Assembly (NCBI GenBank): GCA_973895155.1
Contig: OZ316892.1
Span: 15,182,861 to 15,246,860, forward strand
Length of the DNA: 64,000 nt
Direction: 5' to 3'
DNA from: Marsupella aquatica
Taxonomy: Eukaryota; Plantae; Marchantiophyta
This document shows positions 8,502 to 37,525 of this stretch, piece after piece. Both the position numbers and the translations under genes were made by a program. The notes under the pieces were generated by a model, which saw nothing but the letters and a program-made list of their open reading frames with translations, searched no databases and was not told the origin of the DNA. Positions within the stretch are counted from its first letter, which is position 1, and every line of letters begins with the position of its first letter.

Positions 8502-9674
8502 CTGAAAGCGCAAATCGCATGCTTCAGATGACAAGGAGGAAAGATTTAGTTTTTATCAGCACAGTAGAAGGTAACATAAAAGGAAAGCTTGCTAGCATCC
8601 GGGATAAACAGGGTAAAGAGCTTGCACTGGTCATGACTTCAAGATGCTTCGTTTGAGTCACCAGATAGATCCCTGTCATTAGTGGCTCCATCAAAATCCT
8701 AGCATTTGCAGGGTATGGAAGGCCGGACGATATACAACATGTGCAATACTTCAAATAAAGACAAAACTGAAATGGGGGTGGACAAAAAGGATGGGACAAA
8801 GATTAACAAAATAACATAAAAATATTATTGTGCAAGATTTTTTTTCTTCATATTTGTTTATGTTCAAGGAAGGGGTAATCTGGCTAGTGGAACAAAACAA
8901 TCAATCTCCCCTTGTATACCTCTTGACTTCCCTATTTTTGGTTGGAAAAAGGTGAGGCTGTCATTGTGAATGAGTACCGACGTTGCTAGCTGTATTGTTA
9001 GAAACAAGTTGAACTGACCAAACATAGGCATCAGGCCAACGCTCATGACCATATTTGACCAGATAATCTGCACCTAGTGTGACCCCACAATTGGAGTAAA
9101 GAGGGCCACGTTGGAACTTGACAATTTACTCTTCATAACAAGGTGCTAAGGGTGGCTTTACATAATGTTGGTGGCCCACTTCTTTTTCTCTCCTCTAAAA
9201 TTAAGTTTGGACCACTTAATGAGTGGAGACAGCTGCAATTGGCTTTACAGAAACTTGGGGGCACAGGTATAGTGTCCCCTGATCCTACAATGGCAAGTAG
9301 TGGGCCCAAGTAAATACTGATGTGTAGTGTCTATTTTGCCTAGAATTGTTGACCACCACTAGAGGTGATTGAAACATTTGCAACCCTTGTCCCTTTCTCT
9401 CCGGGGGATTTGCATTTACTGAACTTCAATTCAAAAGATTTTTGAACTGGAGACTATCTTTGAAACAAGGAGTGGCCATGGGGTTTGCTTTGGTGAAAAA
9501 GCTACAAATGCCCCCACCCTAAATGCCATATTAAATAGCCCCATCTAGTTGGTGTCACCTATAGGGAGGTGGCACGTCAAGCTTGTGGTGAGAGGACCAC
9601 TAGTTCTTTGCCCCCTCTCTATGCGCCTTCAGCCAAAATTGCTCTTTGTTGGTTGCTCTTGCTCTCTTCTCAGC

Positions 9675-9850
9675 TGTCGTGACATATAGTATCGTAGCCA
9701 TAGTGTATCGAAAACATACAAGTCACCGGCAAGGCATATGTGCAAGCTGCTAGCAACCAACATGCATAGAAAAAGTCCAATCACATTCACAAGTACCAAG
9801 AAAAAGCAAATGAAGTGGTATGTACGTAGTGGAGGTGTAAACCTCTGTAT
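9675..9850 (-). repeat. Repeat B2 (176 bp), 3' terminus of the element
   Basis: Direct copy of 10211-10386 with about 6 substitutions, all transitions; ends in CACGACA on the element strand. Confidence 0.95.
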
Positions 9851-10208
9851 ATAAAAGGCGTAAGAGAAACAATTGTACTGAAATTGAATCGAAAACCGGC
9901 AGGATGCCAAGATCGGCCGGGAGCATCTAACGAATCACTGTGTGAATCCCGTGTATAGAACCGACGAGCACTGTCTGAGCTCTGTCAACAGCGATTCAAG
10001 AAGAACTGAAAACCCCCAAAGAAAGACATGCCCTAAGCAAGCAAAGTCCTGGCATCACACTAACAAGCACATTTGCTTCAAGAACGGCCCAGACTTGCTA
10101 CAAGAACATGTCACTAACTCAGGTAGTACACTAGCCCTAACTACATACCTAGCGGGCAGGCGAGGGACATGCCGATGTGCATAAGAGGCAATGTCCCTTG
10201 GCATGACA
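9851..10208 (-). repeat. Repeat A2 (358 bp)
   Basis: Direct copy of 25900-26257 with about 11 substitutions; begins TGTCATG on the element strand. Confidence 0.95.
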
Positions 10209-10210
10209 GC

Positions 10211-10386
10211 TGTCGTGACATATAGTATCATAGCCATAGTGTATCGAAAACATACAAGTCATCGGCAAGGCATATGTGCAAGTTGCTAGCAACCAACATG
10301 CATGGAAAAAGTCCAATCACATTCACAAGTGCCAAGAAAAAGCAAATGAAGTGGTATGTACATAGTGGAGGTGTAAACCTCTGTAT
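10211..10386 (-). repeat. Repeat B1 (176 bp), joined to A2 by a 2-bp GC spacer
   Basis: Copy of 9675-9850. The junction at 10202-10217 reads catgaca-gc-tgtcgtg. Confidence 0.95.
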
Positions 10387-10393
10387 CCCCCCC
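10387..10393 (-). other. Putative polypurine tract (G7) immediately 5' of B1
   Basis: A C7 run on + ends exactly at the B1 boundary, about 30 nt after the pol stop. Confidence 0.65.
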
Positions 10394-10425
10394 AGACCAC
10401 AGCCAAAAGGAGGGCTGAAGAAAAT

Positions 10426-11076
10426 TCAGGTAGCACGTGGAGCACAGGAAGGGCAAAACCATAACCCTTCTGGCACCTGGGTAAGTTCAGGCCGAAGACA
10501 GAAAAGATGGTACCCTCCATTGCAATTGTCACACAGCAGCATCTGGTCAGCATCATCAATTCGCAAACACACTTTGCAAGGGTAGTCCACAGGTGGAATC
10601 CAAGTAGAAGTCACAATGGTGGGATCCAGGTTAGGCAGATGACAAGGGGCGCAATTCTTGGCATTGTCAGCAATTGTGCGCCCATCTGCCCCTTGTAACT
10701 CTAGCACTCCCGATGGTCAAATAGCTTTAACCCTAAGAATAGTACGACTGGTAGAGGTGTCCAGGGTGTCGTTAGCTTGCCGTTGCAAGTACACAAAATC
10801 TCCCACTTCAAACTTCCTAACCTTGGGCTGAAAAGTGCCCCCTCGTGTGTGTGCATAACACAGTGTGTCCCTGTGCTGTGCGATGGCCAAATTCTCCATG
10901 GCCATGGGCATAACCCTCCTGAATAGGGCAGCCCTCTCAGAGATCACATCAGACCAAGTCACAGTTGAATCCAAGTCTACCACCTGAAGCATGTGAGCAA
11001 CAATAGCAGAAGGTGGAACTGGGTGACGACCAAAAACAAGAAGTAGGGAGAAAAGTTAGACAGTGATGCATGTCTG
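10426..11076 (-). pseudogene. Integrase C-terminus and C4HC3 PHD finger of the DNMT retroelement
   Basis: HASLSNFSPYFL..GRHP continues the integrase across the Copia insertion. It is followed by GDFVYLQRQ, an in-frame TGA at 10717, and CKVCLRIDDADQMLLCDNCNGGYHLFCLRPELTQVPEGLWFCPSC. Confidence 0.9.
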
Positions 11077-11479
11077 TGTTGGGTATTTACTCTTACGTCT
11101 AGGTTAGGTATGACGTGGTTGGTACAACAACGTGGGTTGGTACAACTACGTGATTAGGTACAACTATGTGGTTAGGTACAACTACGTGATTAGGTACAAC
11201 TATGTGGTTAGGTACAACTAAGTTGCACACTATATCATAAGAGGCATGTGTGCTTGGAGAGGTAGAACCAAGGCTCATTGTTATGGAGCCACTTGAGAGA
11301 TAGGGAGAGCTTACACTATGGAGACTCGGTATAGCCGACGGGCTTAGAGTTCAGTAAAGCTCTCTTGTGTGTTCCCGTGGACGTAGCCTCAAGGAGGTGA
11401 ACCACGTATCTCTTGTGTCGACTATTGTGCGTTGGATGGTTCATGGGCTTGCCGTTGCGATCGTCGTCTATGCTCAACA
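11077..11479 (+). repeat. Copia 5' LTR (403 bp; six copies of an ~18-bp unit)
   Basis: tgttgggtattt...tgctcaaca; matches 17120-17504 apart from one extra 18-bp unit. Confidence 0.97.
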
Positions 11480-11481
11480 AT

Positions 11482-11493
11482 TGGTATCAGAGC
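11482..11493 (+). other. Copia primer-binding site (tRNA-iMet)
   Basis: TGGTATCAGAGC, 2 nt after the LTR. Confidence 0.95.
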
Positions 11494-12807
11494 ATGCTTG
11501 GGAGGTGACGTGTGTTCGTGACGGGATTTCATTATGGTTTTTCCAGCATTGAGTGTCGGTGGATTTCCCGGAGTTCCGTCGCATGGAACTTGGAGTTTAT
11601 GGGCTCAACGGATAGATCGGGGCAAGAGCTTTCTAATGGTGTGAAGAAATCGTTGAACGGAGCTCGTGGTGCAGAGAGATCTAAGTTTTCGTCGTTCTGG
11701 ATTTTGTGAAGAAAGTTGGCAATCGACTCGGAGGGAGAAGCGTCAAGTGTTTTGACTCAACGGAGAGATTGAGGCAAGACGATTGTTTTGAGTCCGGGAT
11801 TGGCTCTTTGATGCAAAGAGGAAGGCTAAGCAAAATCAATTACCTTGTTGGATTGGTGACGGCACCAAGTGCAATTGATCAACATTCGTTGTTGACAAGG
11901 TACCATTTTTTCTCTTTGAAAAACTGATTCGAAATTGGCTATGGCAATTGAGAGAAATCTGTCATCTTTACCAATTTTTTTCTCCCTCGTTCTTTCCTCG
12001 TTTTGGGTGCTTCTTATATCGATCTTCACCGCCTCGAAGTCTAGTTTCCAAATCTGAAATCAGATCTTGATTTCGTCTAAACTCGAGTGAGATATCTTGC
12101 GTTTGGTGTCGAGGGGTACATTCTGCCGTGTGTATTTTCTGCGCGCGCGACCAGATTTCGACGACGAAGGGTGGTAGGGGGTTTTGGGGGTTCGAGGACA
12201 CGTGTCAGCCCCTCGATTGTTCTTCCAAAATTCCCACAAGGCCTGTACAAGGGTCATAGAATATTCCAAAAAACCATAGAGCTATTTTTTGACCGTCCGA
12301 CAAAGATTTCATCCGTCGAACGGTAACTTTTTTGGTTATTTTTTGGCGAGGTCGTAGCCATTGAAGTTGGCAACGCGGCGCACCAATCACATCGTAATTC
12401 CGACAACGGGTTGTACTTGGTATTTCGGTTATTCCCTGAGGTGGTCAAAACGGGGGAGTTTCCCAAGGTTTTACCCACCTCGACCGAAATTTGAATAACT
12501 TTTCCGTCAAATTTTGATTTTGATTTCGGTTTTTAGTATTGGACTCCTAGCTTTGTGGGCTACGCGGCGGTGTTGAGTTTCGAGTTTTTTGAGAAGTTGT
12601 GAAAAACAACAGTTTTTGTGACTTTCTCATATGAGTGATTCGGAGGAGTTTTTCGAAGACGTGGAACTTGAAGCATGAGGATCACCGCGGAGGTTTCAGG
12701 GGCAGAGAGAGGAGCAGGAGGAAGAGCACGTGACACCGATACCATCACCGGTGCGGCGTGTGGTGGAGGAAGCAGTACTACTACCGGAGCTCACGGTAAA
12801 GAAGAAG

Positions 12808-15800
12808 ATGGGGACTTTCAAGCTTGGGGGACCCAAGTATGAAGTGACAAAGTATGATGGGCGCTCTGACTACTTGCTATGGGAGAAGCAGGTGAAGGGA
12901 GTGCTTTATGCGTCAGGGATAGGCCAACTGCTGAGCCCTCGTGAAGACGATGTTGATGAGAAACAATGGGACCGCATGCAGGAGCAGGGAGTGTGGTGTG
13001 TTACACTCTATCTCATGCCTCCCATCATCAAGCAGTTGGGTGCACATAAGGATTGCATGTCCTTGTTTGCGGAATTGCAAAGCAAGTATCACCGCAAGGA
13101 GTTGTCGAACCGGCTCTACACTTCCTACAAACTGATGAGTTTCAGGATGAAGGAATCTGGTACGAAGTTGCAAGACCATGTGGATGATTTCAACGACATG
13201 GTCGTTGACTTGGAAAACCTTGGGGAGACTTTGAATGATGAGATGAAGGCTCTGCAGCATCTTAGTTCATTGCCTTCATCTTACCAGTCCCTATCACGAG
13301 TGTTGTTGCATCGTGATAGGGATACCATTTCATACAATGACGTGGTAAGTTCTCTGCTTAGTGATGATCTTCAGCAGAAGATGCACATCACGTCACAGCC
13401 TTCATCATCTGGTGCTGCCCTCAATGTTAACCGTGGGAGGAGTATGCAGCGACCAACTGGGGACCGTAGAACCCAGTTTAGATCTAAATCCAGATCTAAG
13501 TCCAAGGGTAAATCCCCTCAGAGGAGGCAGGTGACATGTTGGAAGTGCAACCAAGTTGGACACTTCAAGCGAGACTGTAAGGGAAAGGCAGCGGAAACTT
13601 CATCGGCAAATGTGGCTAGGGCTGATGGAGAAGCTGATTTACTCAATGATGAGTATGTTTTATGAAGCCAGGGGTATGCCCTGTGCACGTCATCTAGGAG
13701 AGCAGATGATGTGTGGATTCTTGATTGTGCTTGCTCTTTTCATATTTGTTACATTCGTGAGTTTTTCAGTTCTTACTCTGTTTCAAACGGTTCAGTTCTG
13801 ATGGGAAATGATCACTCCTGTCAAATTGAGGGAATTGGGTCTGTGAAGATTCAAATGTTTGATGGCGCTGTGCGCACAGTGTCCGGAGTCAGGTATGTAC
13901 CTGGCATGCGTAAGAATCTGATTTCACTCGGTGTGTTGGATTCAAATGGTCATCAATGGAGCGTTATTGATGGTGAACTTCAAGTCAGGTCGGGAGAGAC
14001 AGTGATTTTGAAGGGGAGTAGACAAAAGAATTTGTATGTGTTACAGGGCAATACTGTATGTGGAGAGGCCAATGTAACCAAGTCTCACGAGGAGATGACT
14101 CAACTGTGGCATTCACGGCTAGGCCACATGAGTGAGAAGGGTTTGGCTATCTTACGGAAGAATGGACTCATTTCTGATTTGCAATCTTGTAAATTAGAGT
14201 TTTGTGAGCATTGCATTCTTGGAAAGCAGCATCGTCGTGCTTTTGGTGTTGGAACTCATCGTTCCAAAGCGGTTCTTGAGTACATACATAGTGACGTGTG
14301 GGGTCCATCCCCGACTCCCTCACACTCTGGAAAGTTGTACTATGTATCATTTATTGATGATTACTCAAGATTTGTGTGGATTTATTTCATGACGCATAAG
14401 TCTGATGTCTTGTCCATTTTTAAGAAGTGGAAGGCCCAGGTGGAGAATCAGACTGGAAACACGATCAAGTGTTTGGATACAAGGGTGAAGAGTCTGAGGT
14501 CAGACAACGGCGGGGAGTACACTTCAATGGAATTTGAAGAGTACTGTTCAGAACAGGGGATAACTCGCCATCTCACCACAATTTATACTCCGCAGCAGAA
14601 TGGTGTCGTTGAGAGGCTCAATCGGACACTGTTGGAGCGGTCACGGAGTATGTTGAGCCAATCAGGTTTACCACAAGAATTTTGGGCAGAAGCTATCAAT
14701 ACCGCAGCTTATTTGGTAAATCTTTCTCCTTCTAGTGCTATCAATTTCAAAACTCCGTTTGAGATGCGCTATAAGCGGCAAGCAGACTATCATGGCTTGG
14801 TAGTTTTTGGAAGTGATGCATATGCTCTCACACCGAAGCAGAATAGGACCAAGTTGGATCCTACCTCCAAGAAATATGTTTTTCTTGGGTACCAGAGTGG
14901 TGTGAAAGCCTATAGGCTATGGGATCCTATTGCCTGTAAGCTCGTTGTCAGTAGGGATGTTTCCTTCAATGAATCCAGATTATTGAAGGAGGGGGAGAAT
15001 ACTCAGGTCTCCCGTACTGACAAAGAAAAATCTCCTATCCCGGATCTCGTTGAGGGGGAGATTGGTTATGAGGTGCATGACCGGAGAGAAGGAGTTGCTC
15101 CAATTATGGAGCTGGTTCCTGTGCCAGAGGAACCAGAGGAGTTTGTTGATGCTGGTGAGCAGCAAGTGGATGCTGTTGAGCTTCAAATTGTACCAGCACA
15201 CGCAGATCAACCGAAGTCATCGGCTAGAAGAACATCTGGTCGCACTGTACGTGCTCCACCAAGGTATGGACAGTGGGTTGATTCATCTCAACTGCAAGAA
15301 AATGATTTTGCAACTGATGATGAGGGTGATGCGTTAATTTTGGAAGAAGGGGAACCTTCTTCATTTCATGAGGCAAGTGCTTCAAAGGAGAAGCAGAAGT
15401 GGACTGCAGCAATGCAAACGGAGATGCAGTCACTAAAGGACAACAAAACTTGGGAGCTTGTTAAGCTGCCTAAGGGTCAGCAAGTGGTGGACAGCAAGTG
15501 GATTTACAAGCTGAAGGATAATTCCATAGGAGGTGGATCGAAGGTCTACAAGGCTAGGTTGGTAGCAAAGGGATTCACACAAGAGAAAGGTGTGGATTAC
15601 AATGAGGTCTTCTCACCAGTTGCTAAGTACTCTACAATACGACTATTGTGTGTACTTGTTGTAATGTTTGGTCTGCTGCTAGATCAGATGGATGTTGTCA
15701 CAGCTTTCCTCTATGGCACATTGATCTTCATGAGACAACCGCTAGGTTTTGTGAAGAGAGGACAGGAGGAATTGGTTTGCAGATTGCTGAAATCCTTGTA

Positions 15801-16929
15801 TGGGTTGAAGCAGTCACCAAGACAGTGGAACAAGCAGTTTGATGATTGGATTCGGTCACAAGGTTTTCACAGAAGTGTATTTGACCCTTGTGTGTATTTG
15901 AAATCGGTAAAGAATATTGTATTTGGGTTCATTGTTTTAGTACTTTATGTGGATGATATGCTAATTGCAGCCAAGGATAGGTCTGAGATTGTTAAGCTCA
16001 AGGCACTACTTAGTGCAGAGTTTAAGATAAAGGACTTAGGGCCAGCTAAGAGGATTTTGGGTATGGAGATCACTAGGGACTTGGAGGCTGGCAAGCTATG
16101 GTTGACGTAGAGCAGTTATGCGAAGAAGGTAATTGCAAGGTTCAACATGGGGAATAGCAAGCCAGTAAGTACCCCGTTGGCTCCACACTTCAAGTTATCA
16201 TCAGCGTTCTGTCCTACGGATGACACAGAGAAGGGGTTGATGTCAAAGGTTCCGTATGACAAGGCAGTGGGGAGTCTCATGTATTTGATGACTTGCACTA
16301 GACCTGATCTTGCCATGGCTATGGGCAAGGTAAGCAGGTACATGTCAAATCCAGGGAAGGTACACTGGGAAGCAGTGAAGTGGATTATCAGGTACTTGAA
16401 GGGTACCGTGGATCATGGTCTTTTATTTGATGCGAATGCAAAGAATGCTAAATCATTGATTGGCTATGTTGATTCTGACTATGGACAAGATTTGGACCGA
16501 AGGAGATCAACAACAGGATACGTGTTCACACTTGGCGGTGGATGCATAAGTTGGAGGTCTACTTTGCAGAAGTGTATTGCTCAGTCTACTACAGAAGCGG
16601 AGTATGTTGCAGCTGCGAAAGCAGCAAAGGAAGCGATTTGGTTGGATAGACTTATCACTGAAATGGGATTGTCACAGGGGAATGTGAAGCTCCATTGTGA
16701 TAGTCAAAGTGCGCTCCACCTTGCTATGAACCAGGTGATGGACAGCAGAGTGAAGCACATTGATGTCAGGTACCATTTTATCAGGCAGGCTGTGTCTGAT
16801 AATTTGTTTGAGCTAGTCAAGATTGATGGTAAACTCAACCCGGCTGACGCATTTACCAAAGTGATTCCTTTGGAGAGTTTCTCTAGACACCGTGACGTAT
16901 TGCAGGTTTTGCAATTGCATCACAAGTAG
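12808..16929 (+). pseudogene. Copia gag-pol polyprotein in one frame with two internal stops (TGA 13663, TAG 16108)
   Basis: CWKCNQVGHFKRDC knuckle, WILDCACSFH protease, WHSRLGH...CEHC and HSDVWG/SDNGGEY integrase, LYVDDML RT, GYVDSDY/CDSQSA RNase H. The three ORFs share a frame. Confidence 0.93.
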
Positions 16930-17108
16930 AGTTTTCTTAACATTCATTGTAATTACTGATATATGCTCTTCCTCATTCCTATGTATTAGGCTACGGCTTA
17001 GTTCTGGTTTGCTCTAGTTAGAGAGGGAAACCAGTTTGGTTTTTATCCAGAACTTCCCGCTGAGGGATCATATACATTGGCAGTATTACTCTCCCCTAGA
17101 CCAGAGTC

Positions 17109-17118
17109 AAGGGGAAGA
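17109..17118 (+). other. Copia polypurine tract
   Basis: AAGGGGAAGA just before the 3' LTR. Confidence 0.85.
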
Positions 17119-17119
17119 T

Positions 17120-17504
17120 TGTTGGGTATTTACTCTTACGTCTAGGTTAGGTATGACGTGGTTGGTACAACAACGTGGGTTGGTACAACTACGTGGTTAG
17201 GTACAACTACGTGATTAGGTACAACTATGTGGTTAGGTACAACTAAGTTGCACACTATATCATAAGAGGCATGTGTGCTTGGAGAGGTAGAACCAAGGCT
17301 CATTGTTATGGAGCCACTTGAGAGATAGGGAGAGCTTACACTATGGAGACTCGGTATAGCCGACGGGCTTAGAGTTCAGTAAAGCTCTCTTGTGTGTTCC
17401 CGTGGACGTAGCCTCAAGGAGGTGAACCACGTATCTCTTGTGTCGACTATTGTGCGTTGGATGGTTCATGGGCTTGCCGTTGCGATCGTCGTCTATGCTC
17501 AACA
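17120..17504 (+). repeat. Copia 3' LTR (385 bp; five ~18-bp units)
   Basis: Direct repeat of 11077-11479. Confidence 0.97.
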
Positions 17505-18785
17505 GTCTGGACATCCTATACCCCATGGCAATGTAGGGTAAGGCCAGGTCCCAATCCTCCTTGTTTTTGGTGAGGCAAATCTTCCGGAGACCCTTCTTGC
17601 ATGTCTGAACCATGCGCTCTGCCAAGCCATCTGCCTGTGGATGATCTCGTGATGTCCGGCGATGATCAATGAGGGCCTGATCAAGCAGCTCCTGGAACTC
17701 TCCTCTAAACTCTGAGCCCTGGTCAGTGAGACATTCTACACAAGCTCCAAAGCGACTGAGAACTTGTTGCAGGAATGCCTGGCTGGTGCTTAGGGGGGTC
17801 TTATCCGGCAATGCCACAAGTTCTATCCACTTAGAGAAATGCTCTATCATGATGATGATGTAGAGATTACCCCGAGACGTGAGGGGTAATTCTCCAGCCA
17901 AATCACATGACCAGCGATAAAACATGCCCTGAATAGGGAGTGGATGAAGTGTGAGTTGCTGAGATGTGAAAGAAGTCCTCACCCTATCACACTGTTCACA
18001 CCGGGCAATAACATCTTGAACCTGGCCATGCATGCCTCTCCAATGATAATGAGGGACCAAGAGGCTGTAAGTCCTCTTAACGCCAAAATGACCAAGCTCA
18101 GAATGTACCTTACGGATAAGGCCAACCCTCTCATGAATGGGTGGAACCACCACTTCCCTGTCTGGCAAGCAGCGCACGAGATGATCTCCCTTCCACAAGT
18201 AACGCTTGGACCTTTGCTGAATTCGGTCTCTCTGGGCAGCAGTAACATGGGTGGGGTACTCCCCATGCTGCAGAAATCTCAGAGTGTCGCTGTCCTCCCA
18301 TATGTCCACCACAGGTTGGTCAACAATGTAGCATGGCAGCAAAGCAAGATAGGTAGATGCATGAAATGTAGGCAGGACGGAAACCTGGTCAAAATTCTGC
18401 TGTGCGTCTGAGGAATCATCAGAGGCAATCAAAGGGCTGCGGGACATAGTGTCAGCATTTTGATGTGTCACACCAGGCCTATGAATTACCTCAAAATCAT
18501 ACTCCTGGAGTATGAGCGCCCAACGAGCAAGCTTGCCAGTAAGCTTGTCGTTGGTCATCAACCACTTCAAGGGCTGGTGGTCGGTGTAGAGAACAAACCT
18601 GGTCCCATAGAGGTAGGGCCTATAATGTATGATAGCCCACACAACAGCAAGGCATTCACCCTCATAAGAAGAATAATGACTCTCTGCCTGATTGTTGCTC
18701 CTGGATGCATAGGCAATGATGTACTCTTTACCTTCCTCATCATGCTGGCCCAAAATGGCACCAATCCCAAGGGCACTCCAATCTG
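17505..18785 (-). pseudogene. RNase H and integrase (HHCC and DDE core) of the DNMT retroelement
   Basis: DWSALGIG..IAYASR..EGECLAVVWAI..TDHQPL..NADTMSR; HSELGHFG..CEQC; CDLAG, TDQGSEF, GLAERMVQ. Confidence 0.95.
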
Positions 18786-19830
18786 TGTGAAATCAGGTCT
18801 TCTCAGCACCGGGTATTCTGAAAGCTTCTCCTTCAAAGTGGCAAATGCTGCCTCAGCATCTGTACTCCATGTCCAAGTCACATTCTTTTTCAACAAAGCA
18901 TACAATGGGTGTGCAATGGTACTGAAATCTTTGATGTAGATCCGGTAGTAATTGCACAACCCAATAAAACTCCTCAAAGTGTGAACATCGGTAGGAGTGG
19001 GCATTTCCAAGATGGATACCACCTTGGCCCAGTGAGCCATGGTTCCATTTGGAAGAATGCGATGCCCAAGATATACTACTGATCTGACAGCAAATTCACA
19101 CTTATTGGGGTGTATCTTTAGGTTCACCTTCTTAAGCCTCATGAATAGCTCCTCAAGGTCAAGTAGATGCTGGTCAAATCCTTTATTGTGGACCAACACA
19201 TCATCAATGTAGCATTTCAGAAACTCAGCACCTTGAAGAACCTGGTCCATGACTCTTTGAAAGAATATGGGCGCATTCTTCAAGCCAAATGGCATCACCA
19301 ACCACTCCCATAGTTGGTTACTACCATGGAAAGCTGTTTTCTTGCGGTCCTTTGCAAGCAGCAAAATCTGGTTAAAGCCTTGCCTTAGATCCACAAGAGT
19401 GAAGATGTCTGAGTCTCCAATGCTGTCAAATAGCTCCTCTGGCCGTGGCATGGGGTACCTGTCCTGGGGTGTGACCAGGTTTAGCGGCCTGTAGTCCCCA
19501 CACATGCGCTTCTCTGTCCACAATCCACTGGAATCCTTCTTTGCTGGCATCACTGTAGCTGTTGCAAAATCTGATGTAGATGGCTGAATAAGACCAGCTT
19601 CATATAACTCTTGGCACCTCTCATCCACCAGCTGACACTCATGCTTACTCAAACCGTGTCTCCACCTGAAGATAGGTGTTTCATCAACCAAATCAATGGA
19701 GAACTGCATAGTCTTGCACTTACCCCAGTCCTTCATAGAGAAAGCAAACACATTCTCATGCTTGAGGAGCAAATTCAGCAGCTGGTCCTTCTGTCTTTTA
19801 CTCAGGTGGTTGCCCATGATGAATGTGTAG
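18786..19830 (-). pseudogene. Gypsy-type reverse transcriptase of the DNMT retroelement
   Basis: KRMCGDYRPLN, DRYPMP, DLRQGFNQI, MPFGLKNAP, YIDDVLV, YLGH. It is in frame with the C-terminal half of the methyltransferase. Confidence 0.96.
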
Positions 19831-20189
19831 TTGGCAACACTAGGAATAGGACCTGATGTACTCGTACTTGAAGAGCCAGAAGTGCTAGCCTCTCCACTGT
19901 CCAAGCTGCTAGCATGCTGCTGATAAGGTGATGAGGCCTCTCCGAGGCCTGTTGTACCTGCTGATCTGGGTTGGTCCACACCATGAAACTCAGAAATAAT
20001 ATCAGCCACATTACAAGGGACCTCCTCCCCCCCAACACTTGGACTGAAGCGATGAGTGTTGAATAGAGGTAAGTGCACCTGGTCAGGATGCCATGTAGCA
20101 GCACCATGGAGTGGTAGAGCTGGAACTCCAGATGCTGGATGAATGTACATCTGAAAAAGGATGCAAGTGACCAGAAGCCAAGTGAGAGC

Positions 20190-21120
20190 ATTAAGATCCA
20201 TTACCCTGCCAAGTAAAGCATTCCTGGCCAGCCTGGTGATCTGGGTGTGACCTGTAGTACCGGATTGGAAGCCCATAGCCCGTTCTCTCTCCTCAGGATT
20301 AGGTTCATCCCAAGTACCGGTAGAATGTCGATAAACCAGGCCAGGACCATCACCCTGAAAGGCATGTGCACCTGGAAAGGATACAAATGTAGGCCAAGCA
20401 GCACGGGGCTGTCCAATGGTATTGGCTGGATACCAAGGTGCTGGCTCTTGCCGTGTAACTGGTTGGCAAGAACTGTCAGGATCCAAAATCTGGTCCACTA
20501 TGAGGTTAGTGTCCCTGGATGTGTGGTGAAGAGCTAACTCCAACAAGGAAGGTGGTGCAAGGTTAGTCCAAAAGTTACGAAGACGATGTGCATAAGAACC
20601 ACAGTGCACTGCATCAATGAGAAGGGGTGGTCCCAAGTAGTGTTGGACCACACTGAAATCCTCTTTGACCTATGGACGCTGGTCAAACTGAGATGGAGTA
20701 TTCTCAATGATATAACCAACAGCAGGATAAAGGGACTGAGCCCAGGTGAGAATCTGAACCAATGCTGTGAAAAGGCCAGAACGAGAATCATGCAGTCCAG
20801 CACCGTGACCAGCAGCTGAAAACCCTTGGCATTCCCAACCAGCTATGATCAAATCAAGGGAGCCAAGAAGGGTTAAGTGTCGGTGCTGGACAAGCTGGAT
20901 ATCTGGAGGAAAGAAAGAAAATGCAGACTTCCATGCACTATGTGGAAACTGCTGGGGAAATCGCTCTGAAAATTCCAACAGACGGGATTCAGCCACTTGC
21001 CTTGCACCTGGATCAATATCCACATAGATGTACTACTTCACCACCATGCCAGACTGTAGGAGAGCTTCCAGGCCTGTAGAAATGCCACCAAAAAGCTCAA
21101 GCAATGTAAGGCCATCTGAA
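20190..21120 (-). pseudogene. C5 cytosine DNA methyltransferase domain (DNMT3-like) inside pol
   Basis: Ordered motifs: I LELFGGISTG, II YVDID, IV DLIIAGWECQGFS, V DSRSGLF, VI IIENT, VIII AHRLRNFW, IX ERERAMGF, X RLARNALLGRVMD. One frame, broken only by TAG at 21033 and 20670. Confidence 0.9.
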
Positions 21121-21341
21121 GGAGGAGTCCATGTAACTGGTGCGCTCAAGATTGGGGCTATTGATTGGCCATTGTGCTGCCCAAGATCCTCAAATTTGCG
21201 CAATGCAGCCACCAAAGGTCCATGGGCTGCTTGGAGCCGTTGTACCACCTCTGGTTGATGATCCACGTTGCTGGAAAGTGCTGCTATACGTGCAGCAGCA
21301 TGTGCAGTAGCCACCTCATCATCATCCTCCTCAATCCAATC

Positions 21342-22724
21342 CTACAATGGGTGGTTGACATAGGTAGCTGTGTGCACTGCTTTCAACACACAGTGGTGAG
21401 CCATAGGTGTATGGGCACCGTGCAAATCAAGTGGAATGTAGCCCAAGTGTGAGCCATCCGTATGCCAATCAACTCTGTAGTATGCATGCTCATGCCAGTT
21501 GTCAATGGTAAAACCTGGTGGGAACAAAGCCTCCTGGCCAATGAGCACATCATACGTAGTGGCATTGGTAACCAAACATCTGACTGGGAAATGCAATTCC
21601 TGATCTGTACCTCCATTAAAAGTGAGAGTGAGTAAAGTAGAACTCTCACCCAGCACATCCTCCACAGTGCCACTAGCAGTCCGAATGTGCCACTTGGATT
21701 GCTGTAAATGATCAGTCAACAGTCCCATCTTCTTGGCAAACTGAATGCCCAATATCACTGGTTGAGCACCTGTGTCTAGCATGACCACCTGAGGAGCGTG
21801 ACCCTCCAACTTGACCACTGAATTCCTGTTGTCAACAATGACAATAGTGGTGGAAACTGAAGTCCTGTCACTAGGCACCACTCTCGGCAAATGATGAGGT
21901 ACCTTGTGAAGGGAGTTAGTGTCCACGGTCTTTCCACTCAACAACATAGCCAGGAAAGATGGAGTAGCATGACCAGAATCAAGTGTAGCTCTGGTCACAC
22001 AATCAATAGCAATCGGTACTGGGGCAGCCAAACCAGTGGAAACATGTAAAGGAGAAGAAGAAGGTCCAGTATGTACATGAGATTGGACCTCCAAAACCGG
22101 TGTCACAGGGGCTGATGAAGAATGCAGTGAACCCTCTAGCGCTCTGAGGACAGCTCTAGCATCCAGCTGTAAATCATGGCAATTGAAAAGTAGAGTTGTA
22201 AGAATCCTTTGTGCCATACCGGAGGTGACATGCTCAAGTAGCTCAGGAGAAACAACTCCCTGTGAAATGTCAGCAGCACCTGGTGGTGGAATGGATGTAG
22301 TTGCAGCTCCCTCCCCCCTCGCCAACAAGGTGCGCTCTTCAGCAAGTGTGAGTGGCTGAAAAGATTGGGGCAAGACAGCCCGAGCTCCCCTGGCTCTAGT
22401 CATAGGACCGGCAGCAAGACCATCAGCCTGTACAATGCGGCGTGTGGGAGCAATACGAGAGGCAGCACTGGCTTGCTGGTAAGCAAAATAGGAAGGGCAG
22501 AATGAATCTAAAAATTCTGCTGTAAGGCCAGGCTGTGGAGCAGAGGACAACACACACTCACCCATATGAGCATCAAATGGCAAGCCATAGAAAGAGCGGG
22601 ATAGAGGTGCTGAACTGTCAGTGGTGTCTGGGTTGCACGTGACCAGCCGGTTGAGAAGGACCAGCAGAGGTAGTTGACTTGCCTTTGATGTTGGCAAGTT
22701 GGGCACGTAGGGACTCAACCTCAT
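21342..22724 (-). pseudogene. Pol N-terminus with retropepsin-like aspartic protease
   Basis: VMLDTGAQPVILG...IRTASG...YDVLIGQEAL; same frame as the DNMT and RT across a TAG at 21342. Confidence 0.88.
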
Positions 22725-24192
22725 GAGTCAGAGACTGGAGTTGAGTTGCCTGTGCGTTGTGAGCCTCCTTCTGAGCTGGTGGCTTCTGTTGCTACTTGGG
22801 CAATTTGTTGGCACTGGTTGCTTTGCCACTGGAAGGAGGAGCAACTGATGCAATAGGAGCCCTCCTAGCTGGTGGGGGAGTGGAAACATGAGCAGGATGA
22901 GTGGCCTGTTGTCGTAGCTGTTTCCTCTCTAGGAATTTGGCAAAACAAACTGCCTCCAAGTGGCCCACTTTCCCGCAAAAATCACAAGACAGGTCCTCAG
23001 CAACAATATCACATTCATTAGCCTTGTGATTAGGATTGCCACAGTAGTTGCAAGATGGCAGCATGAAAGCAGCATGTGCTGGTTTGGTCTTGGAAGCATA
23101 CTATGGCACACGGGAAGGGGTGGTCATTGTAGGAGTAGCAGCCTGGTACCTGGATCGCGGTGGACGCGCAATACTGGCCTCATAATGTGCATGGGCCAAC
23201 TCAAGTTTCTCAGCAGTGTCATAGACATTGAGCAATGTGTAGCTGTCTCCAAACTCTGAGAATACTTGCTGCAACACTTGTGAATGGAGAGCTGGTGTGC
23301 CCGCCAATGCGCAAAGATAGCGATGAGCAGCTTCTAGGTCAGTGATGCTCTGGGTGTCCTCCTTCAGCTTAAGAAGCCGGCGATACATCATCTTCAAGGT
23401 TTCATCGCGCTGCCTCACAAAGGTCGCCAACTGCATGATTTTGTCAGCACTCTTGATTGGGAATTCCAATTCAAGAACCTGGAAAAACTCAGCGACTGGA
23501 TCAGCAAAGGCAGGAGAATCAATAGTGGGAGAAATGCCTGATGTAGCCTGTGCCAAGACAGTGGGAGTAACTGGCGCAGTGGTAGGAACTGGAGTAGGAG
23601 GGGAAGTGGCAGGAGCAGCAACATGGGCTGCAATGGCATTATGTAAGGCCAATTGTGAGGCTGCCATAATTGCACTGGCATAGGTAGGGTTTGTTAACTG
23701 TGTGATAGCAAGCAGCCATTGAGAGTGCTGCTCATACACATCCAAAGCCTCATAGTGCACATACCTGGCTAGTTGCTTGAATGCAAAAGCATTGGTGAAA
23801 TTGCTGCCGTACTTCAACTCCAATTCGTAAATGACAGTGTAGAAAGTGGATTTGAACTCACACAAAGAAACAGTGCCTGGTCGCCCGCTGAAGAGCTCAA
23901 TGCGGCCAGATGAGTGGCTAGCATCCATGCTGTATGTCGGTGAAGCTGGAACAACCACTAATGCATAAGGGGTAAATGGCAAGGAAGTGATAGCAGGCTT
24001 CGGGGTAGTGGTGAAGCGACCGCCAAATTGAGCAGAAGGATTGTGTGGTGTGGGTGCTGCTGCTGTCTGCGGACATTGTCGAAATTGCCGAGACTCCAAT
24101 GAAATTGGCACCAACGGTCGTGGATCACTCCGTAAGTGGTACCGGGGTGTCGATGGCGATGAGCTGCTACGACTCGGCTCCTCTGCTGACAT
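22630..24192 (-). pseudogene. gag-like ORF with two Cys/His knuckles
   Basis: 363-aa ORF, in-frame TAG at 23101, CNYCGNPNHKANEC and CDFCGKVGHLEAVC, TAG at 22792, then a coiled-coil-like tail. Confidence 0.8.
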
Positions 24193-24869
24193 GCTGCATG
24201 CTCACCTGGGGTGCCAATGGAAAAGAAACTGACAAGAAAAATAAATGGCACCCTCAAGGCTAGAAAATTAACCTACAATGAAGCAACAGCGTGAGGCAAA
24301 AATGTTGTGGCCTTGATGTGCATACCCGGGCGTGTAGCCCTATGCGGATTACCGGCGGTTACCAAATGTCCGGGACCAAATGTCAGCGGCTGTGAAGAAA
24401 TATAATGAAATGGACCCCCTTAAGTGTATACATCGGGACCCCCTGTAATTATGCATTGGGCCTGATGTGGACACAGGAACTGACGGAAGGCGCACATCGA
24501 CAGAAAAGAAAAATCAGGTGGGGACCGGCAACCGAGCGAGTGTGCATACACACTCGAGCACGGTGCCCTATGCAGTCGGAGGGAGGTTCTCGCGCGGCGT
24601 TTGAGGCAAGTCGACGCCTTGCCGGCTACAACCCACGGATTGCAGGTCGCGGCAGCTGGGCTGGAAAATGGAAAAATGGGTCTTCAAAACGCGAACGGGC
24701 CCCAATGTACACATCGGCCCTATGTGGACCCGAGAAATGACAGCAGGTCGATCGTCGCGCGGCGAAAAAGCGAGAATGGCCGAAAAAGGGGAAAACGGGA
24801 CCCAAGGCGAGGCGAGGAAAAAAAACACAGAAGAAGCAGAAGTGGGCCTTAATTGCGCGAGCCCTGCAT

Positions 24870-25325
24870 AGGGCTTCGCACCGCCCCCTCCTTAAGTCCT
24901 TATGAGCTCCCGAAGGGAAGCTACGAGTTCCCCCTTCCCCTCCTTAATGATTCCTGGTGGGCCTCGTGCCCTGCAGAAGTGTGACTCCCAAGAGGAGGGA
25001 GTCTAATTGAATTCCCCCTCCCCTCTTTAATTCAGCATAGGGCCTCGTGCCCACTCCTTGCGCTGCTGCCTCGGCTTTGTCTCCCCCCTCCTTTAATGCT
25101 GCTAAATGTGCTTCATGCCCTGCAGGACTCCTGAGAAGGGAGTCGTATGTATTCCCCCTCTCCCCCTCTTTTAATTCCTCATAGGGCTTCGTGCCCTTCT
25201 TTCGCTTCCCCCTCTCCTGCGTGGCTGGTGCGCGGCTCCCCTCTCCCTCCTCTTTAATGCTGAAATGGGGCCTGGCAGGATGACTCCCGAGAGAGAGAGA
25301 GTCGTATGTACTCCCCCCCTTCTTA
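24870..25325 (-). repeat. Degenerate array of hairpin modules in the element's 5' leader
   Basis: Recurrent + strand motifs cccctc(c/t)ttaa, gggc(c/t)tcgtgccc and gactcc...ggagtc; the last two are self-complementary. Confidence 0.7.
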
Positions 25326-25886
25326 CTGTTTTAGAGGCGCGAAGCTGGCTCGGCAGCCGTGGCCGGGAGAGACAAAAAAAACGTTTGAGGGGCCCCCAAG
25401 GGTCGACTCGAGCGGGGGCGCAGCTCCCTATGTACAGACTGCGAAGAGCCGGGGGTGGTAGCGAAAAATGGGCACACGGCCCTATACACTGACAATCGGG
25501 AGGTGGCAGGGAGGGACCATGGCCGGAAACTGCAATAATCGGGCCCCAATCGTTGCGCTACGGTCGGGGCAAGTTCACCAGTAGTGTGTGGCCGGGAAAA
25601 TACCGAAAATGGCCCGAAAAGGTCGAACGTGCACGAGGGCGCAGCGCCCTATGCAGCAGCCGGAAGCAAGTTTGCAACAGCAGGTCGGCAATCGACGGAG
25701 GGGTCGCGGATGCACCCGGGAAGGAAAAATTGGGTTCCAATAGAAGCGTTATGTGTATACATAACGTGACATTAAACCCATAATTTCAACTCGTCACTCC
25801 GATGTCCGTCGAAGAAATTGCAATGGCTTCACCAGAAATTGTCGAAATTGCCACGAGCAATCTTCTTCTCCTCACCGCTAACTCGG

Positions 25887-25901
25887 CAGTTCTTCTTGAA
25901 T
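25887..25901 (-). other. Putative self-priming primer-binding site
   Basis: cagttcttcttgaat (25887-25901) is the exact reverse complement of attcaagaagaactg (26043-26057) inside A1 and abuts the A1 boundary. No TGG-type tRNA PBS is present. Confidence 0.75.
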
Positions 25902-26257
25902 AAAAGGCGTAAGAGAAACAATTGTACTGAAATTGAATCGAAAACCGGCAGGATGCCAAGATCGGTCGGGAGCATCTAACGAATCACTGTGTGAATCCCG
26001 TGTACGGAACCGACGAGCACTGTCTGAGCTCTGTCAACAGCGATTCAAGAAGAACTGAAAACCCCCAAAGAAAGACATGCCCTAAGCAAGCAAAGTCCTG
26101 GCGTCACACTAGCAAGCACATTTGCTTCAAGAACGGCCCAGACTTGCTACAAGAACATGTTGCTAACTCAGGCAGTACACTAGCCCTAACTACATACCTA
26201 GCGGGCAGGCGAGGGACATGCCGATGTGCATAAGAGGCACTATCCCTCGGCATGACA
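25900..26257 (-). repeat. Repeat A1 (358 bp), 5' terminus of the element
   Basis: Direct copy of 9851-10208; not followed by B. Confidence 0.95.
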
Positions 26258-26322
26258 CAGCCCCAGTTTTTTATTGGTGACCTTGTGGATAGTTCAGGCA
26301 GTTTCAGGCGCTGCAACACTGG

Positions 26323-27701: not shown

Positions 27702-29528
27702 CTAAAATTGCCATTCAAGATAGTCCTCTACTTCCTTTTGGCTGTCATAGTCCACTGTATTCCCAATGGTCTTGTCTTTCTCGTGCCCCCATATGTAATT
27801 TAAGCCAACCAACAGCTCTGTAATTGCTGCCTCACTTTTAGCTAGATCTGCAAAATAGAGTGTTTGAAGCAAAAGAATGTTGGAGCGAGCTACGACCTGC
27901 TGCTGCTCGAAGTTGTGCTCAGACTGCCAACGAATCATATTGTGGGCCAGGGGGGTTAACCACGCAAGTATTCTTTCCAAAGCATCCTTCCAATGACTAG
28001 CAATATCACCATCAAAGCCATCTTGCTTCCTCATTCCTGCCTTGAGTCTGGACCTCAGAGCCATTCGCACGCTCTTTGGTAGCATGTTGTACAGATCATC
28101 CCTGGAATCATGAGATATAAGATGTGGAAACTTGATCATCTTCTCAATGATGATGACAACGTTGGCGTAGTGTAAAGCCAGAGCAGCACCTCCAAGGGTG
28201 GTAGACGGGGCGTTATGATGCCTGTGTTTTGGATCAAAGAAGACTTTCCTGGTGTGACCGGTCTGACTGAAAAGATCATGATTTGAAGACACACTGGGTA
28301 TCCTGAAAGGAGTTCTAAGGGGAAATGGTTGAGAGCTGCGGAGGGAGGCCGGGCTGAGGGTCTCTGCCAAATTAGACCATTGAGTGCCTGTCCCAACCTT
28401 ACTAGAAAGGCTGATCGGGTTGTCGTGAGGGCTATCTATTGCGAGGGCCTGAAAATCCATGGACCCCCTCGTAGGGGATTGAAGGCAAGTTTGATAGAGA
28501 GGAAAATAGCAAGGATTAGGTTTTCTAGATTGACTAATGATTGGCCCAGAACTTAGAGCCGGGCGTAAGTCAGAAACCACAGGGGATACTCGAGAGACAT
28601 AAGAGCTACTTACTGAATTTGTGATTGCCCCGCTAACAAAGGTGCGATCATGAGGAGAGCCAGGAGTGAAAGGCCCCACGACTACTGGGCCAATTGAGGA
28701 TTGCCGTTCCAATCCTCTGCGCGGAGGTGGAGGTGTCAGTTTAATAAAGGGCGAAGCTCCAGTCTTCAGAGGAGCGTCTCGTAATCTTTCAACGGGGAAC
28801 AGCTGAGGCAACCCCAGGAGAGGAGAACCAAAGACTGTTATAATTCTTCCATGAATGGTGCACACAGTTCGTGCGAGAAGGGTTACAATTTTGTCATAAG
28901 TGCTATTCCAAAGAGATAAATCTCTCAAGTACTTGATTTCCTGTCGATGCCATAATGCTTTCTCCTCCAGGGCAACCAATGTTTCTCTGTCACGCGGGGT
29001 ACCTGACCCGTCATCCTGCATCCTTCTGATGGCGATCTCCAAATCTCCTAGAATCTCTAGTTCCTGGTACAGATGCGACGTTGAAGCGATGAATTGATCC
29101 ATCTTCTTAACCTTTGCTTCCATGTCTTTGAGAGCGAATTCCCATTTTTGGACATCAATCTTATGCTTCAGTACGTCGTCATAGACATGCTCGAAACCGT
29201 GCAGTACCTGTTCTTGACATTTCTTCCCCAGTCGGGCAACTGCCCCAGCTACTGCTGTCAGGTCCTGGAGTTTTTCCATGCAAGCCAAACTGAGAAGGAC
29301 AGCCTCTTTGTCAGATACCAGGTTTAGAACGCCCTCAGCTTTGATCACATCTGTTCTAAGCCGAAGGATCTCATGATCACTCAAAGACTGCCACAGCAGC
29401 ATGATCTTTGACATTACATTTGCCACCTCAAAGGAAAGGATTCCTATTTTCGCTTTCTCGGGTTTTGCACCCTTCTTCTTCCGATCTCGTTCTATCACCG
29501 CCTTGATGGTGCTCACCTGGCTCCCCAT
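27702..29528 (-). CDS. DUF3475/DUF668 domain protein (PSI-related family), intronless CDS
   Basis: IGILSFEVANVMSK (DUF3475) and TLGGAALALHYANVVIIIEK..RDDLYNMLP..WLTPLAHNMIRWQSE (DUF668). The first ATG gives MGSQVS, an N-myristoylation-like start. Confidence 0.93.
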   Translation of the reverse strand: MGSQVSTIKAVIERDRKKKGAKPEKAKIGILSFEVANVMSKIMLLWQSLSDHEILRLRTDVIKAEGVLNLVSDKEAVLLSLACMEKLQDLTAVAGAVARLGKKCQEQVLHGFEHVYDDVLKHKIDVQKWEFALKDMEAKVKKMDQFIASTSHLYQELEILGDLEIAIRRMQDDGSGTPRDRETLVALEEKALWHRQEIKYLRDLSLWNSTYDKIVTLLARTVCTIHGRIITVFGSPLLGLPQLFPVERLRDAPLKTGASPFIKLTPPPPRRGLERQSSIGPVVVGPFTPGSPHDRTFVSGAITNSVSSSYVSRVSPVVSDLRPALSSGPIISQSRKPNPCYFPLYQTCLQSPTRGSMDFQALAIDSPHDNPISLSSKVGTGTQWSNLAETLSPASLRSSQPFPLRTPFRIPSVSSNHDLFSQTGHTRKVFFDPKHRHHNAPSTTLGGAALALHYANVVIIIEKMIKFPHLISHDSRDDLYNMLPKSVRMALRSRLKAGMRKQDGFDGDIASHWKDALERILAWLTPLAHNMIRWQSEHNFEQQQVVARSNILLLQTLYFADLAKSEAAITELLVGLNYIWGHEKDKTIGNTVDYDSQKEVEDYLEWQF

Positions 29529-32500
29529 TGTAAACCACAATATTTGAATACTACGATATTCCTAACCGCACCATAGTCTCGAGGGACGTGGATGACACAT
29601 ATGAACTAGAACACCGTGCCCCGTACTGTAAATTTCTTGTCTTTTTCACGCCACTTCAGAGCTTCACTGTTATATAAGTTGGGGTGGTCCTGTACTCCCT
29701 TTGTGGTCACCTGAATTCTAAACCTCGCAGAACCCTGCCATCCACAAGAAACGTAGAATAAATAACTCGGCGACAAGAGTGAGAAAATGTTTACAACCCA
29801 GTATTAAATTCCAAGTCAGTCACCTGCAGTACAACGTCCTTCAAAGATTCGACGGACTGCAGAACGAATCCGGTTGCTAGTCCGCTTCACAATTCTAAGT
29901 CAACTTTCCCCGCACTCTAAAATCCCTGCCTATTGTCGGGACAGCTCAATCACACTGGTTGGGGCACCCAGCTCGCTTTTGCTGGAAGAAAAACCTCTAT
30001 CTGAGAGCCACTTTGACACTCAGAACTAAGCCCTTCACTGAGATGTCAATCAAAACCTATGAAACAAGGTTTTCTGGAGCATCGTGGCAAAAGACCATCC
30101 TCTGATCTAGAAGCTGAAAGACCACGGCAGAGAAACCGGAGTGGGGAGCTATCATCGATGGAAGGGAAGGCGTTGAGTGTAGAATTGCATTCGGTAGTGA
30201 ACAGATGAATGGTTCGTGCAATTCGCACTTACAACTTGCGGTGGAAGGCAATCACGAGAACAGGTAATTGTGATCCGGAGAACAAGCAATCTAATGGAAA
30301 GGAACCATAGAAGTCTCGCTTAGTGCCTTCCACATTCATTTCGCAAGGCCGGCAGGGCGGCTCTCTACGCTTTCTCGATGCCGTCTATCTAAAGACATTC
30401 GGATCTGACCCAATCATTATTGCTCTGACTGAAAGGATAGCCTTCATCGATCACTCAAGGGCCAGACAACGCAGAGTTTGCAGTGAACTGAACAACCATA
30501 GATAACATAACTCTCAATCGAAAGGAAGCAATTGAAGAGTTGGGGAGCTGCCTCACCTAAGCTCGCTAGACAGAACGAGTGTCTTCCGTTCATTCCGTGT
30601 ATCTTCAAACCCATTGCGTAAAACAACACAGGAGTCGTGTCCACACCTTAACTCCACTTCCCGGGTACAGCACTACCAGATGGTAACAGAGTCTATCGGC
30701 AAGTGATGATCTGGCACTTTGCCTGGGTATCCTGCCGCCGCTGTTAATGAAAAAACTCCACGATCGCCTGTCCAAGGGCCCCAGAAATTGACCTTCTCTG
30801 GTTCAATAGCACGCTCCCATCCTCAACACTGGAAGTGAACCGCAACCCCCAATTCCAGCAAGAGTGGAATCCTGCCGCCCCACAAAACTTTGGAACTCCC
30901 GGAATTTTGTCCCTGCTTTGAATGACATAATCTCATCAGCTTTTCGAGGATTTCATGATAAAGTTTATGTGTATCATCCTGTGAACAAATTATTCAAAAG
31001 AAGAAATCGACTTCACCACCAGCCACTTACTGGCAACGATTTGTCTACCGAAGGATCGAATCCACTACTGAGAGCTGAAGCCCTATACTCCAGTCTTCTA
31101 TGTGCCCGCCGCCGGCCCGTGGCACCCGTTTGTCTCCCATCCCCTCTTGTCCTAGAAATCGCCCAAGAATTCATTCAGATATTCATCACAAACATTTCGG
31201 TCACCTCCACACTTGACTTGCCGGGAGTCAGACATGTTCTGGTGCTAGCTAGCCAGCTAGCAGACCACAGCAACACCTCAGCTGTTCTCTACTCCTCTCT
31301 AAAACGCGTTAAGCCGATCCGCACACAATCATCATCCTTTTGCTCCGCAAGGTCGTCGTCCTCCACGGCATCTGCCGAACACACGAATGCAGTATTCTGT
31401 CGCGAGGACGAGCGGGAGAGAGTGCAAGTTGGGGGTGTCGATGAAGAAAGCTACCACCCTCCCCACTGCCTGCCTCTTCCTGCCTTGCTCTATCCCTTGG
31501 CTTCGTGCAGCTTCCTCTGCCCAACCTCTGCCCAGCCGAAAAGTCTTCACTCTCATCAGTAGACTCCGTCTCCGTCCGATCAATCGATCCTTCGTCTCGC
31601 GGCCAAAGCCGAGCCGAGGCGAGCCGAGCCCAGCCAAGCCCGCCGTGCTCGGACAGCTGCACTCCTACGACTTTTTCTTCGCTCCCCTCCGCTCTTCTGC
31701 GACAAGTTCGCTCCTGCTGATTATAATAAACTTTACCCGGCGCACACCTCACCTCACCTCGCTTCACCTCGCTCGAAGCAGATTAATCTGCAACATATTA
31801 TTGCACTGAAAGTTTGTGACTACCGCTCTCCTATCCAGAACCGCAAGCACAGTAAACCTTCACACTACAAACCCCATACTCATCGATGCCTTCTACAAGC
31901 TTTCTCTCCAACCCCGGGATTTGCACACTCACTCTCTCTCGTCTCTCTCTCGTCTCTCTCTGGCCTCGGAATCTAAGAGATTCATTCTTCCGCTGCAAAA
32001 GACACAAATCCGTTGCGAACTCGATCGTCGGCTACTCTTCCTCCTGCAATAGTAGTATCGGGATACTAAACTCGCCGCCGAGGCAGACTTGATGATGAGA
32101 GACTACTGCACCCATTCGATTCGATTCACCCGAGGGCCCCTGTACAATAATGATGACTAGTGCCCCGAGCAACGACGATGGGATCAGGACGAGACCAACC
32201 TCTCTCCTCGCCGTCACGCAATTTTACAGTAGAAGTCGAAGGCCAGGACAGAAATGCCGACCGGACCTCGTCCTTCCTGGTCCTGTTGTTGACTCCTGTA
32301 GTAGTCCTGCTCCTGCAATACTGATATTGTTGTTCTGTGACTCTGTGAGGTCCCGTTGCTCTTTTTCCAGTCTGATCTCCGTGTATCCAGACTAGACCAA
32401 ACCGGACCAATCGAACTGGATCAAACCAGACCAGAAATATCGGAACCAGCCCAAACCAGACCAGACGTCGACCTGTCTCTAGCACTTCAGGTCCATGTCC

Positions 32501-37105: not shown

Positions 37106-37525
37106 AAAAAGCCTTATGAGATATGGACGGACACGTTGAATTTTGATATTAGGGCTGTCCATAACCAAGATAATCAGCTCGTGGGATATCTATCAGTCAA
37201 GGTGGAGAACAAGTGGCCGACTCAAGAGCAGAAACACTATTGTTTGTGCAATGAAACAATGGTACATCCATCTCATGGAATCCCGGCACATACCCAATTT
37301 CAATGATAATATCTATGTGACTTATTTCTTGGCTTAATCCAAGTCATTGCCAATGCAATGCCGCTGGCCAGAGCGCATCCAAAAGTTCCCTAATTATAAG
37401 ATCCAATATAAACCAAGGGAGAACTTAGTGGCGGATGCCTTATTGAGGCATGAGATTTGGTTGAAAGGTGCATTGTCAAATCCAATTCACTAGACAAGTT
37501 GCTCAGGGCCTATGCATACAATTGC

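Follow-up and report, generated by a model that had tools for sequence, protein, structure and literature searches.

The analysed window, 64,000 nt of Marsupella aquatica DNA (assembly GCA_973895155.1, contig OZ316892.1, positions 15,182,861-15,246,860, forward strand), contains a 16.6-kb Ty3/Gypsy element with split repeats on the minus strand (9675..26257, a nested Copia element included) and two intronless host genes, one encoding cpSRP54 (40205-41983), which we used to place the host, and the other a DUF3475/DUF668 protein (27702-29561). Among the matches listed, cpSRP54 is 89% identical to the protein of Calypogeia fissa, 81-82% to those of Riccia and 78% to that of Ceratodon. In a tree built from the window protein and 18 of the 120 matches listed, it grouped with Calypogeia and one further protein (100/99), nested within liverworts (99/99). 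Judged from this gene, the DNA belongs to a land plant resembling leafy liverworts. No tRNA genes were found in the 64-kb window. Elsewhere in the window there are an ORF with three LysM-type matches, resembling an NFP/LYK-like ectodomain (61842-62570), and a tandem array of ~35-bp units (42376-43169).

The Gypsy element has TG...CA ends and is flanked by a 4-bp target site duplication with identical letters on the 5′ (26258..26261) and 3′ (9671..9674) sides. Read from its 5′ end on the minus strand, the 358-bp repeat A (25900..26257) is followed by a long, GC-rich, CpG-retaining leader (24210..25899; GC 0.55, CpG o/e 0.85) and by a gag-like region with a zinc knuckle (22795..24000; zf-CCHC, E 8e-5). 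The latter carries a stop at 23101-23103 and is split from the pol frame by a frameshift near 22650; in the relative P0004, gag-pol is one open frame. Pol consists of an aspartyl protease with a DTG motif (about 21525..21815; PF13975, E 3.4e-7), a DNMT3-type C5 cytosine methyltransferase with unpermuted motifs I-X (20157..21113; catalytic Cys at 20831, two internal stops), a reverse transcriptase (RT) core with YIDD (19056..19517; PF00078, RVT_1, E 1e-27) sharing the protease/methyltransferase frame, an RNase H past a frameshift near 18790 (18499..18789; PF17917, E 1.2e-35), and an integrase H2C2 zinc finger with the rve core (17638..18141; PF17921, PF00665). The integrase is disrupted by a younger Ty1/Copia element on the plus strand (11077..17504), which is not part of the family; its C-terminal part resumes on the far side together with a PHD finger (10429..11040, PHD 10578-10444; PF00628, E 2e-12). 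The domain order of the element is gag-PR-MTase-RT-RH-INT-PHD.

At the 3′ end, a G-run that is likely the polypurine tract (10387..10393, minus strand; common to L001, L003, L005 and L006) adjoins the first copy of the 176-bp repeat B (10211..10386). This copy ends in CA and is separated by a 2-bp spacer from the TG of the 3′ copy of A (9851..10208), after which the terminal copy of B (9675..9850) closes the element, all three repeats lying on the minus strand. The repeat plan is A-coding-B-A-B, and its internal B-A join, CA plus two bases plus TG, resembles joined ends. The same full plan is present in L001 and L006, and its 3′ B-A-B part in L003 and L005; a 4-bp target duplication is present at L006, and none was seen at L001. 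The letters of the target duplication in the window match the internal B-A join (10200-10220), by chance or through target preference, which is not so in L006. No TGG primer-binding site was found by eye after the 5′ A in the window copy, L001 or L006. The PR-RT-RH-INT order, DDE integrase, TG...CA ends and short target duplication are those of Ty3/Gypsy elements, but split repeats stand in place of two full LTRs with a tRNA primer-binding site. We considered a DIRS retrotransposon and ruled it out, since the integrase is of the rve type, with no tyrosine recombinase, and the target duplication is 4 bp long.

In the six-frame translation, one minus-strand frame runs through the protease, about 320 methyltransferase-like codons and the RT without a frameshift, although three stops break it, at 21342-21344 upstream of the methyltransferase domain and at 21033-21035 and 20670-20672 inside it; the domain was translated with X at the stops. 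The motifs occur in canonical order: I ELFGGISTG, II YVDID, IV GWECQ, VI IENT, VIII AHRLRNFW, IX ERERAMGF and X RLARNALLGR. The domain matches PF00145 with E 8.8e-7 and 29.1 bits, above the gathering cutoff of 22, and its middle piece alone matches Pfam DNA_methylase with E 2.8e-7. Among solved structures, DNMT3A is the nearest in sequence (E 1.8e-7 with the single sequence), and a profile of 14 family sequences again ranked DNMT3A first (2.8e-18), followed by DNMT3B/C, by DRM (8e-12 to 5e-9), by HhaI (2e-6) and by DNMT2. The predicted structure model has a mean pLDDT of 91.5, and all Foldseek matches listed are DNMT3 entries. When the model was compared with 48,161 representative chains, DNMT3B came first (Z 28.7, rmsd 2.6, 274 aligned) and DNMT3A followed (27.4), with M.MpeI (Z 25.2), HhaI (22.6), DNMT2 (22.2) and DNMT1 (18.9) at lower ranks. 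The domain is thus DNMT3-type by sequence and by the fold of the predicted model, a class assignment that expresses closeness to solved methyltransferases. A DRM identity was ruled out because the motifs run from I to X without circular permutation.

In motif IV the window copy has Glu-Cys in place of the Pro-Cys dipeptide. Across 202 aligned family domains, 201 of which have a residue at this site, the catalytic Cys is present in 201/201 and the motif VI Glu likewise in 201/201, and the two motif VIII Arg residues in 200/201 and 199/201. The residue before the Cys is Glu in 115/201, Pro in 69/201 and another in 17/201. Glu at this position is therefore not a sign of decay, being the commonest state of the family. 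The original prediction had read motifs I-X as ordered and in frame with protease and RT, had likened motifs VIII-X to those of DNMT3 and had noted that the Cys was kept as GWECQ; translation and Pfam bear out the first point apart from the three stops, the alignment with DNMT3A displays the quoted motifs, and the third corresponds to the state seen most often in the family.

Searches yielded 21 and 45 polyproteins, the 45 containing no host plant DNMT3 or DRM; 518 clusters at 50% identity were found at E up to 1e-30. Named members come from Marchantia polymorpha (two hypothetical proteins), Closterium (two), Tetradesmus, Scenedesmus, Chromochloris and Cymbomonas, most relatives found being unnamed or green algal, and no named K. 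nitens protein was among the matches to the family. We examined 227 proteins, a number that counts redundant cluster members, and 209 of them have the methyltransferase domain. In 51 of these 209 the sequence is too short for the domain order to be called, and in all proteins with a callable order (158/158) the methyltransferase is internal to Pol and occupies either of two positions: before the RT or after the protease in 18 proteins (Marchantia, Closterium and close kin of the window), and between RNase H and integrase in 140, among them those named chlorophytes whose order could be called. Most complete relatives also have a PHD finger alongside the methyltransferase. Fourteen of 80 metagenome loci are family members as well, eight of them 61-69% identical to the window, and the ESM Atlas holds three PF00145-type clusters at 0.94-0.96. 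The closest relatives of the window (L001-L008, P0003-P0005) are 61-77% identical in the methyltransferase and mostly 69-76% in the RT, and Marchantia is about 40% identical. This identity gap to Marchantia may reflect lineages that have long run in parallel, or else a transfer from one bryophyte to another.

We compared RT and methyltransferase trees of 84 elements. Of 23 RT splits with support >=0.95, 18 recur in the methyltransferase tree, and 15/21 do so in reverse, which points to long joint inheritance. RT and methyltransferase distances are also correlated (Mantel rho 0.51, shuffled maximum 0.25), as kinship alone would make them. The elements with the methyltransferase before the RT, which make up 5 of the 84 having an RT as well, were recovered as monophyletic (0.997 in the RT tree, 0.941 in the methyltransferase tree); in the full methyltransferase tree this monophyly was not recovered (supports 0.19-0.72; Closterium and P0006 outside). 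In the likely history, the methyltransferase was captured once and long ago, at an early stage of green plants or algae, and changed its place in Pol one or more times, probably leaving the position after RNase H for the one ahead of the RT, the trees being unrooted as to direction. A prokaryotic or viral origin was rejected: the best matches outside the family are 22-48% identical over partial stretches, with E 7e-13 or weaker, and none is a close donor. Two methyltransferases from viral contigs (L081:8001-8456 and L082:8001-8456) have a DNMT3-like motif I (LSLFDG) and were sister to the retrotransposon clade with support 0.99, in a tree with 11 prokaryotic or viral outgroups and no eukaryotic DNMT3.

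The Marsupella copy itself is dead because of its stops, its frameshifts and the Copia element in its integrase, having been disabled not long ago, and it is unable to make the enzyme. The LTRs of that Copia element have no differences at 385 aligned positions (0/385) and differ in the counts of a short internal repeat, while the Gypsy repeats differ at 11/358 positions between the A copies and at 6/176 between the B copies; hence both insertions are young, the Copia being the younger. The Copia gag-pol has just two stops (13663, 16108). Older repeats in opposite orientations at 36758-37108 and 52906-53262, 75-83% like the Copia LTR, are possibly solo LTRs. Further copies of the Gypsy element are evident in sequencing runs, where contigs from 4 of the 15 runs listed span all 30 bins of 19000-22000, a cover that is partly by choice because the runs were found with this same stretch. 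None of the 11 joints listed from these runs showed loss of the whole domain. The bulk of other copies in the runs do not share two of the three stops (40/159 rows, the site of the third stop lying outside them). In the same selected subset (40/159 rows), 23 C-to-T changes are particular to the window copy, with 13 in CHG, nine in CHH and one in CG context; CHG is enriched relative to CHH (p 0.0003), which fits host CHG methylation after insertion.

The methyltransferase domain is under purifying selection. Between the window and L001-L007, its dN/dS is 0.10-0.12 in 7/7 pairs, with upper bootstrap limits of at most 0.20, compared with 0.15 for the protease and about 0.05 for the RT, where 3/5 window pairs are saturated; all these ratios are rough because dS is near saturation (pS 0.70-0.72). 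Among decayed loci, 21 pairs gave 0.25-0.57 for the methyltransferase, with all intervals <1, and 0.30-0.62 for the RT.

CpG composition offers a further view of methylation. Across codon boundaries, the element has 29 CpGs against 149.5 expected (0.19), compared with 0.35 for the nested Copia element (p 0.022) and 0.75 for three host genes; the leader and repeats retain CpG (0.68-0.85), CHG is not depleted, and the CpG ratio of relatives ranges over 0.11-0.63. Depletion is thus modestly deeper than in Copia, the one control element, which is itself depleted. This lends weak support to self-methylation, and methylation by the host could by itself produce the whole signal. An older Copia RT fragment at 45730-46413 is CHG-depleted (0.47), in contrast to both young elements.

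Retrotransposon-borne DNMTs had already been described in dinoflagellates and the charophyte Klebsormidium, as the original prediction stated (de Mendoza et al. 2018, PMC5890265). The closest published likeness is KnitGypsy-Dnmt3 of Klebsormidium nitens, which is reported to have DIRS-type repeats with Gypsy domains, the DIRS plan being A-coding-B-A-B, and dN/dS <0.2 (PMC5890265). The liverwort element resembles it in its Gypsy domain set, its unpermuted Dnmt3-type domain in the Pol ORF, its A-coding-B-A-B repeats and its dN/dS <0.2, and differs in that its host is a land plant; the likeness is drawn from the published description. With SymbioDIRS-Dnmt3 and SymbioLINE-Dnmt of Symbiodinium, as described, it shares a Dnmt3-type domain in Pol and two alternative domain orders, but those are DIRS elements with a tyrosine recombinase or LINEs, whereas the present element has a DDE integrase, a protease and a target duplication. 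EpiLTRs/DAM-LTRs likewise are LTR elements with a methyltransferase and a chromatin reader; their DNMT is reported as sister to DNMT4 and accompanied by a DAM domain and a chromodomain, and is set apart from 'streptophytes (Gypsy-DNMT3)' (bioRxiv 10.64898/2026.05.21.726589). Gypsy-7a_cRei of Chlamydomonas is similar in having a Gypsy Gag-Pol with a PHD finger and an LTR in subparts; the passages describing it mention no methyltransferase (bioRxiv 10.1101/2022.06.16.496473). Among host enzymes, plant DNMT3 (MpDNMT3b, moss DNMT3) and DRM also have a DNMT3-class catalytic domain, permuted in DRM. The host DNMT3 of K. nitens is a multi-exon gene; in sperm, MpDNMT3b is reported to mediate methylation outside CG.

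Gag-Pol proteins are made and packaged together with RT and integrase. For a domain that is part of Gag-Pol and packaged with these enzymes, the element's cDNA is the likeliest substrate, and the constant location of the methyltransferase at one of two places in Pol keeps it tied to the RT/integrase polyprotein. We lean towards the reading that in active copies the co-packaged enzyme methylates the element's own cDNA. The methyltransferase would be made in Gag-Pol, enter the particle with RT and integrase, be active despite the Glu preceding its catalytic Cys, and add 5mC to the new cDNA, probably in CG context, ahead of its insertion by the DDE integrase; the PHD finger would likely read the chromatin of the target site. 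A new copy would then probably profit by arriving with a resemblance to host DNA or under tuned silencing. SymbioDIRS-Dnmt3 domains performed de novo CG methylation in yeast, and cDNA methylation was proposed by the authors (PMC5890265). Alternatively, an active enzyme might be released from Pol and act mainly on chromatin, perhaps with the PHD finger as its guide, whether at the inserted copy, at its site of insertion or elsewhere in the host DNA. The dN/dS values and conserved catalytic residues would serve this equally well, the PHD finger does occur beside the methyltransferase in most complete relatives, and the leader and repeats are free of CpG depletion. Still, the domain is kept in Pol at both positions instead of as a separate gene, and the K. 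nitens methylome is reported to be plant-like and not altered (PMC5890265). We regard a chromatin target as unlikely.

Rather improbable, too, is a changed substrate (RNA or RNA:DNA) or a loss of chemistry that left a binding module, with Glu-Cys marking the change. The preponderance of Glu over Pro before the Cys would agree with this, as would the unusual ends, where a tRNA primer site is not evident, and KnitGypsy-Dnmt3 showed no DNA methylation in yeast, a result that its authors called inconclusive because human DNMT3B failed likewise (PMC5890265). However, the family switches between Glu and Pro even where the domain order is identical (Glu in the window, Pro in the two Marchantia proteins), the remaining catalytic and SAM-binding residues are all retained, and the predicted fold is DNMT3-like, scoring above DNMT2. 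The two in-domain stops might suggest that this copy recently captured a host or bacterial methyltransferase as a functionless passenger, but this is very improbable: relatives from other hosts carry the domain at the same place, the clusters found are numerous, and two of the three stops in the frame are not common to the bulk of other copies. Recent functionless capture is refuted by the presence of the domain in relatives, purifying selection and the conserved catalytic residues. Since most relatives are unnamed or green algal, one might also suspect algal DNA misassembled into a plant contig, which would void the land-plant claim; we give this hardly any credence, because the target duplication flanks both sides, the liverwort cpSRP54 gene lies in the same window, many copies occur in several runs, and two independent Marchantia polymorpha proteins belong to the family.

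Elements of this kind have been known since 2018. What is new is a liverwort copy with its full anatomy and the extension to land plants, together with relatives named from Marchantia and chlorophytes, the two domain orders and the variation between Glu and Pro. The original prediction had proposed a DNMT3-type domain in Pol and a land-plant host, and both stand, the latter through the cpSRP54 placement. None of the three outcomes that it had named as refuting came about, since the domain matches PF00145, occurs in other family members and is under purifying selection; its idea of an enzyme packaged with RT that could methylate the cDNA stays a proposal. It had overlooked the PHD finger, the split repeats at the ends and the much wider family. 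The Gypsy case was treated as a Klebsormidium-lineage capture by de Mendoza et al. 2018 (PMC5890265), and later papers still cite the Gypsy-DNMT3 kind as 'streptophytes'. Relatives in chlorophytes suggest that the family is much older and wider than such a capture. According to a 2019 opinion paper, land plants such as tracheophytes lack transposons that encode DNA methylases (PMC6338049); bryophytes now have them. A literature search limited largely to openly accessible papers found no report of such an element in a land plant. The Marchantia methyltransferase surveys by Aguilar-Cruz et al. in 2019 and by Bowman et al. in 2017 may already list these genes.

More tentatively, one ancient Gypsy lineage may have passed from chlorophytes through Zygnematophyceae to liverworts and mosses with a complete epigenetic kit, pre-methylating its own cDNA. 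In this broader scenario, which we find possible but doubtful as a whole, the kit would comprise an active Glu-Cys de novo methylase, a PHD reader and tRNA-independent split-repeat replication; if it is true, a mobilised element could also methylate host DNA de novo. The two family proteins are unnamed in the Marchantia polymorpha annotation and so make the matter testable in a model plant, where genetics and methylome mutants offer a way to ask why a transposon keeps the very class of enzyme by which it is silenced. Such elements can also inflate DNMT3 gene counts in bryophytes.
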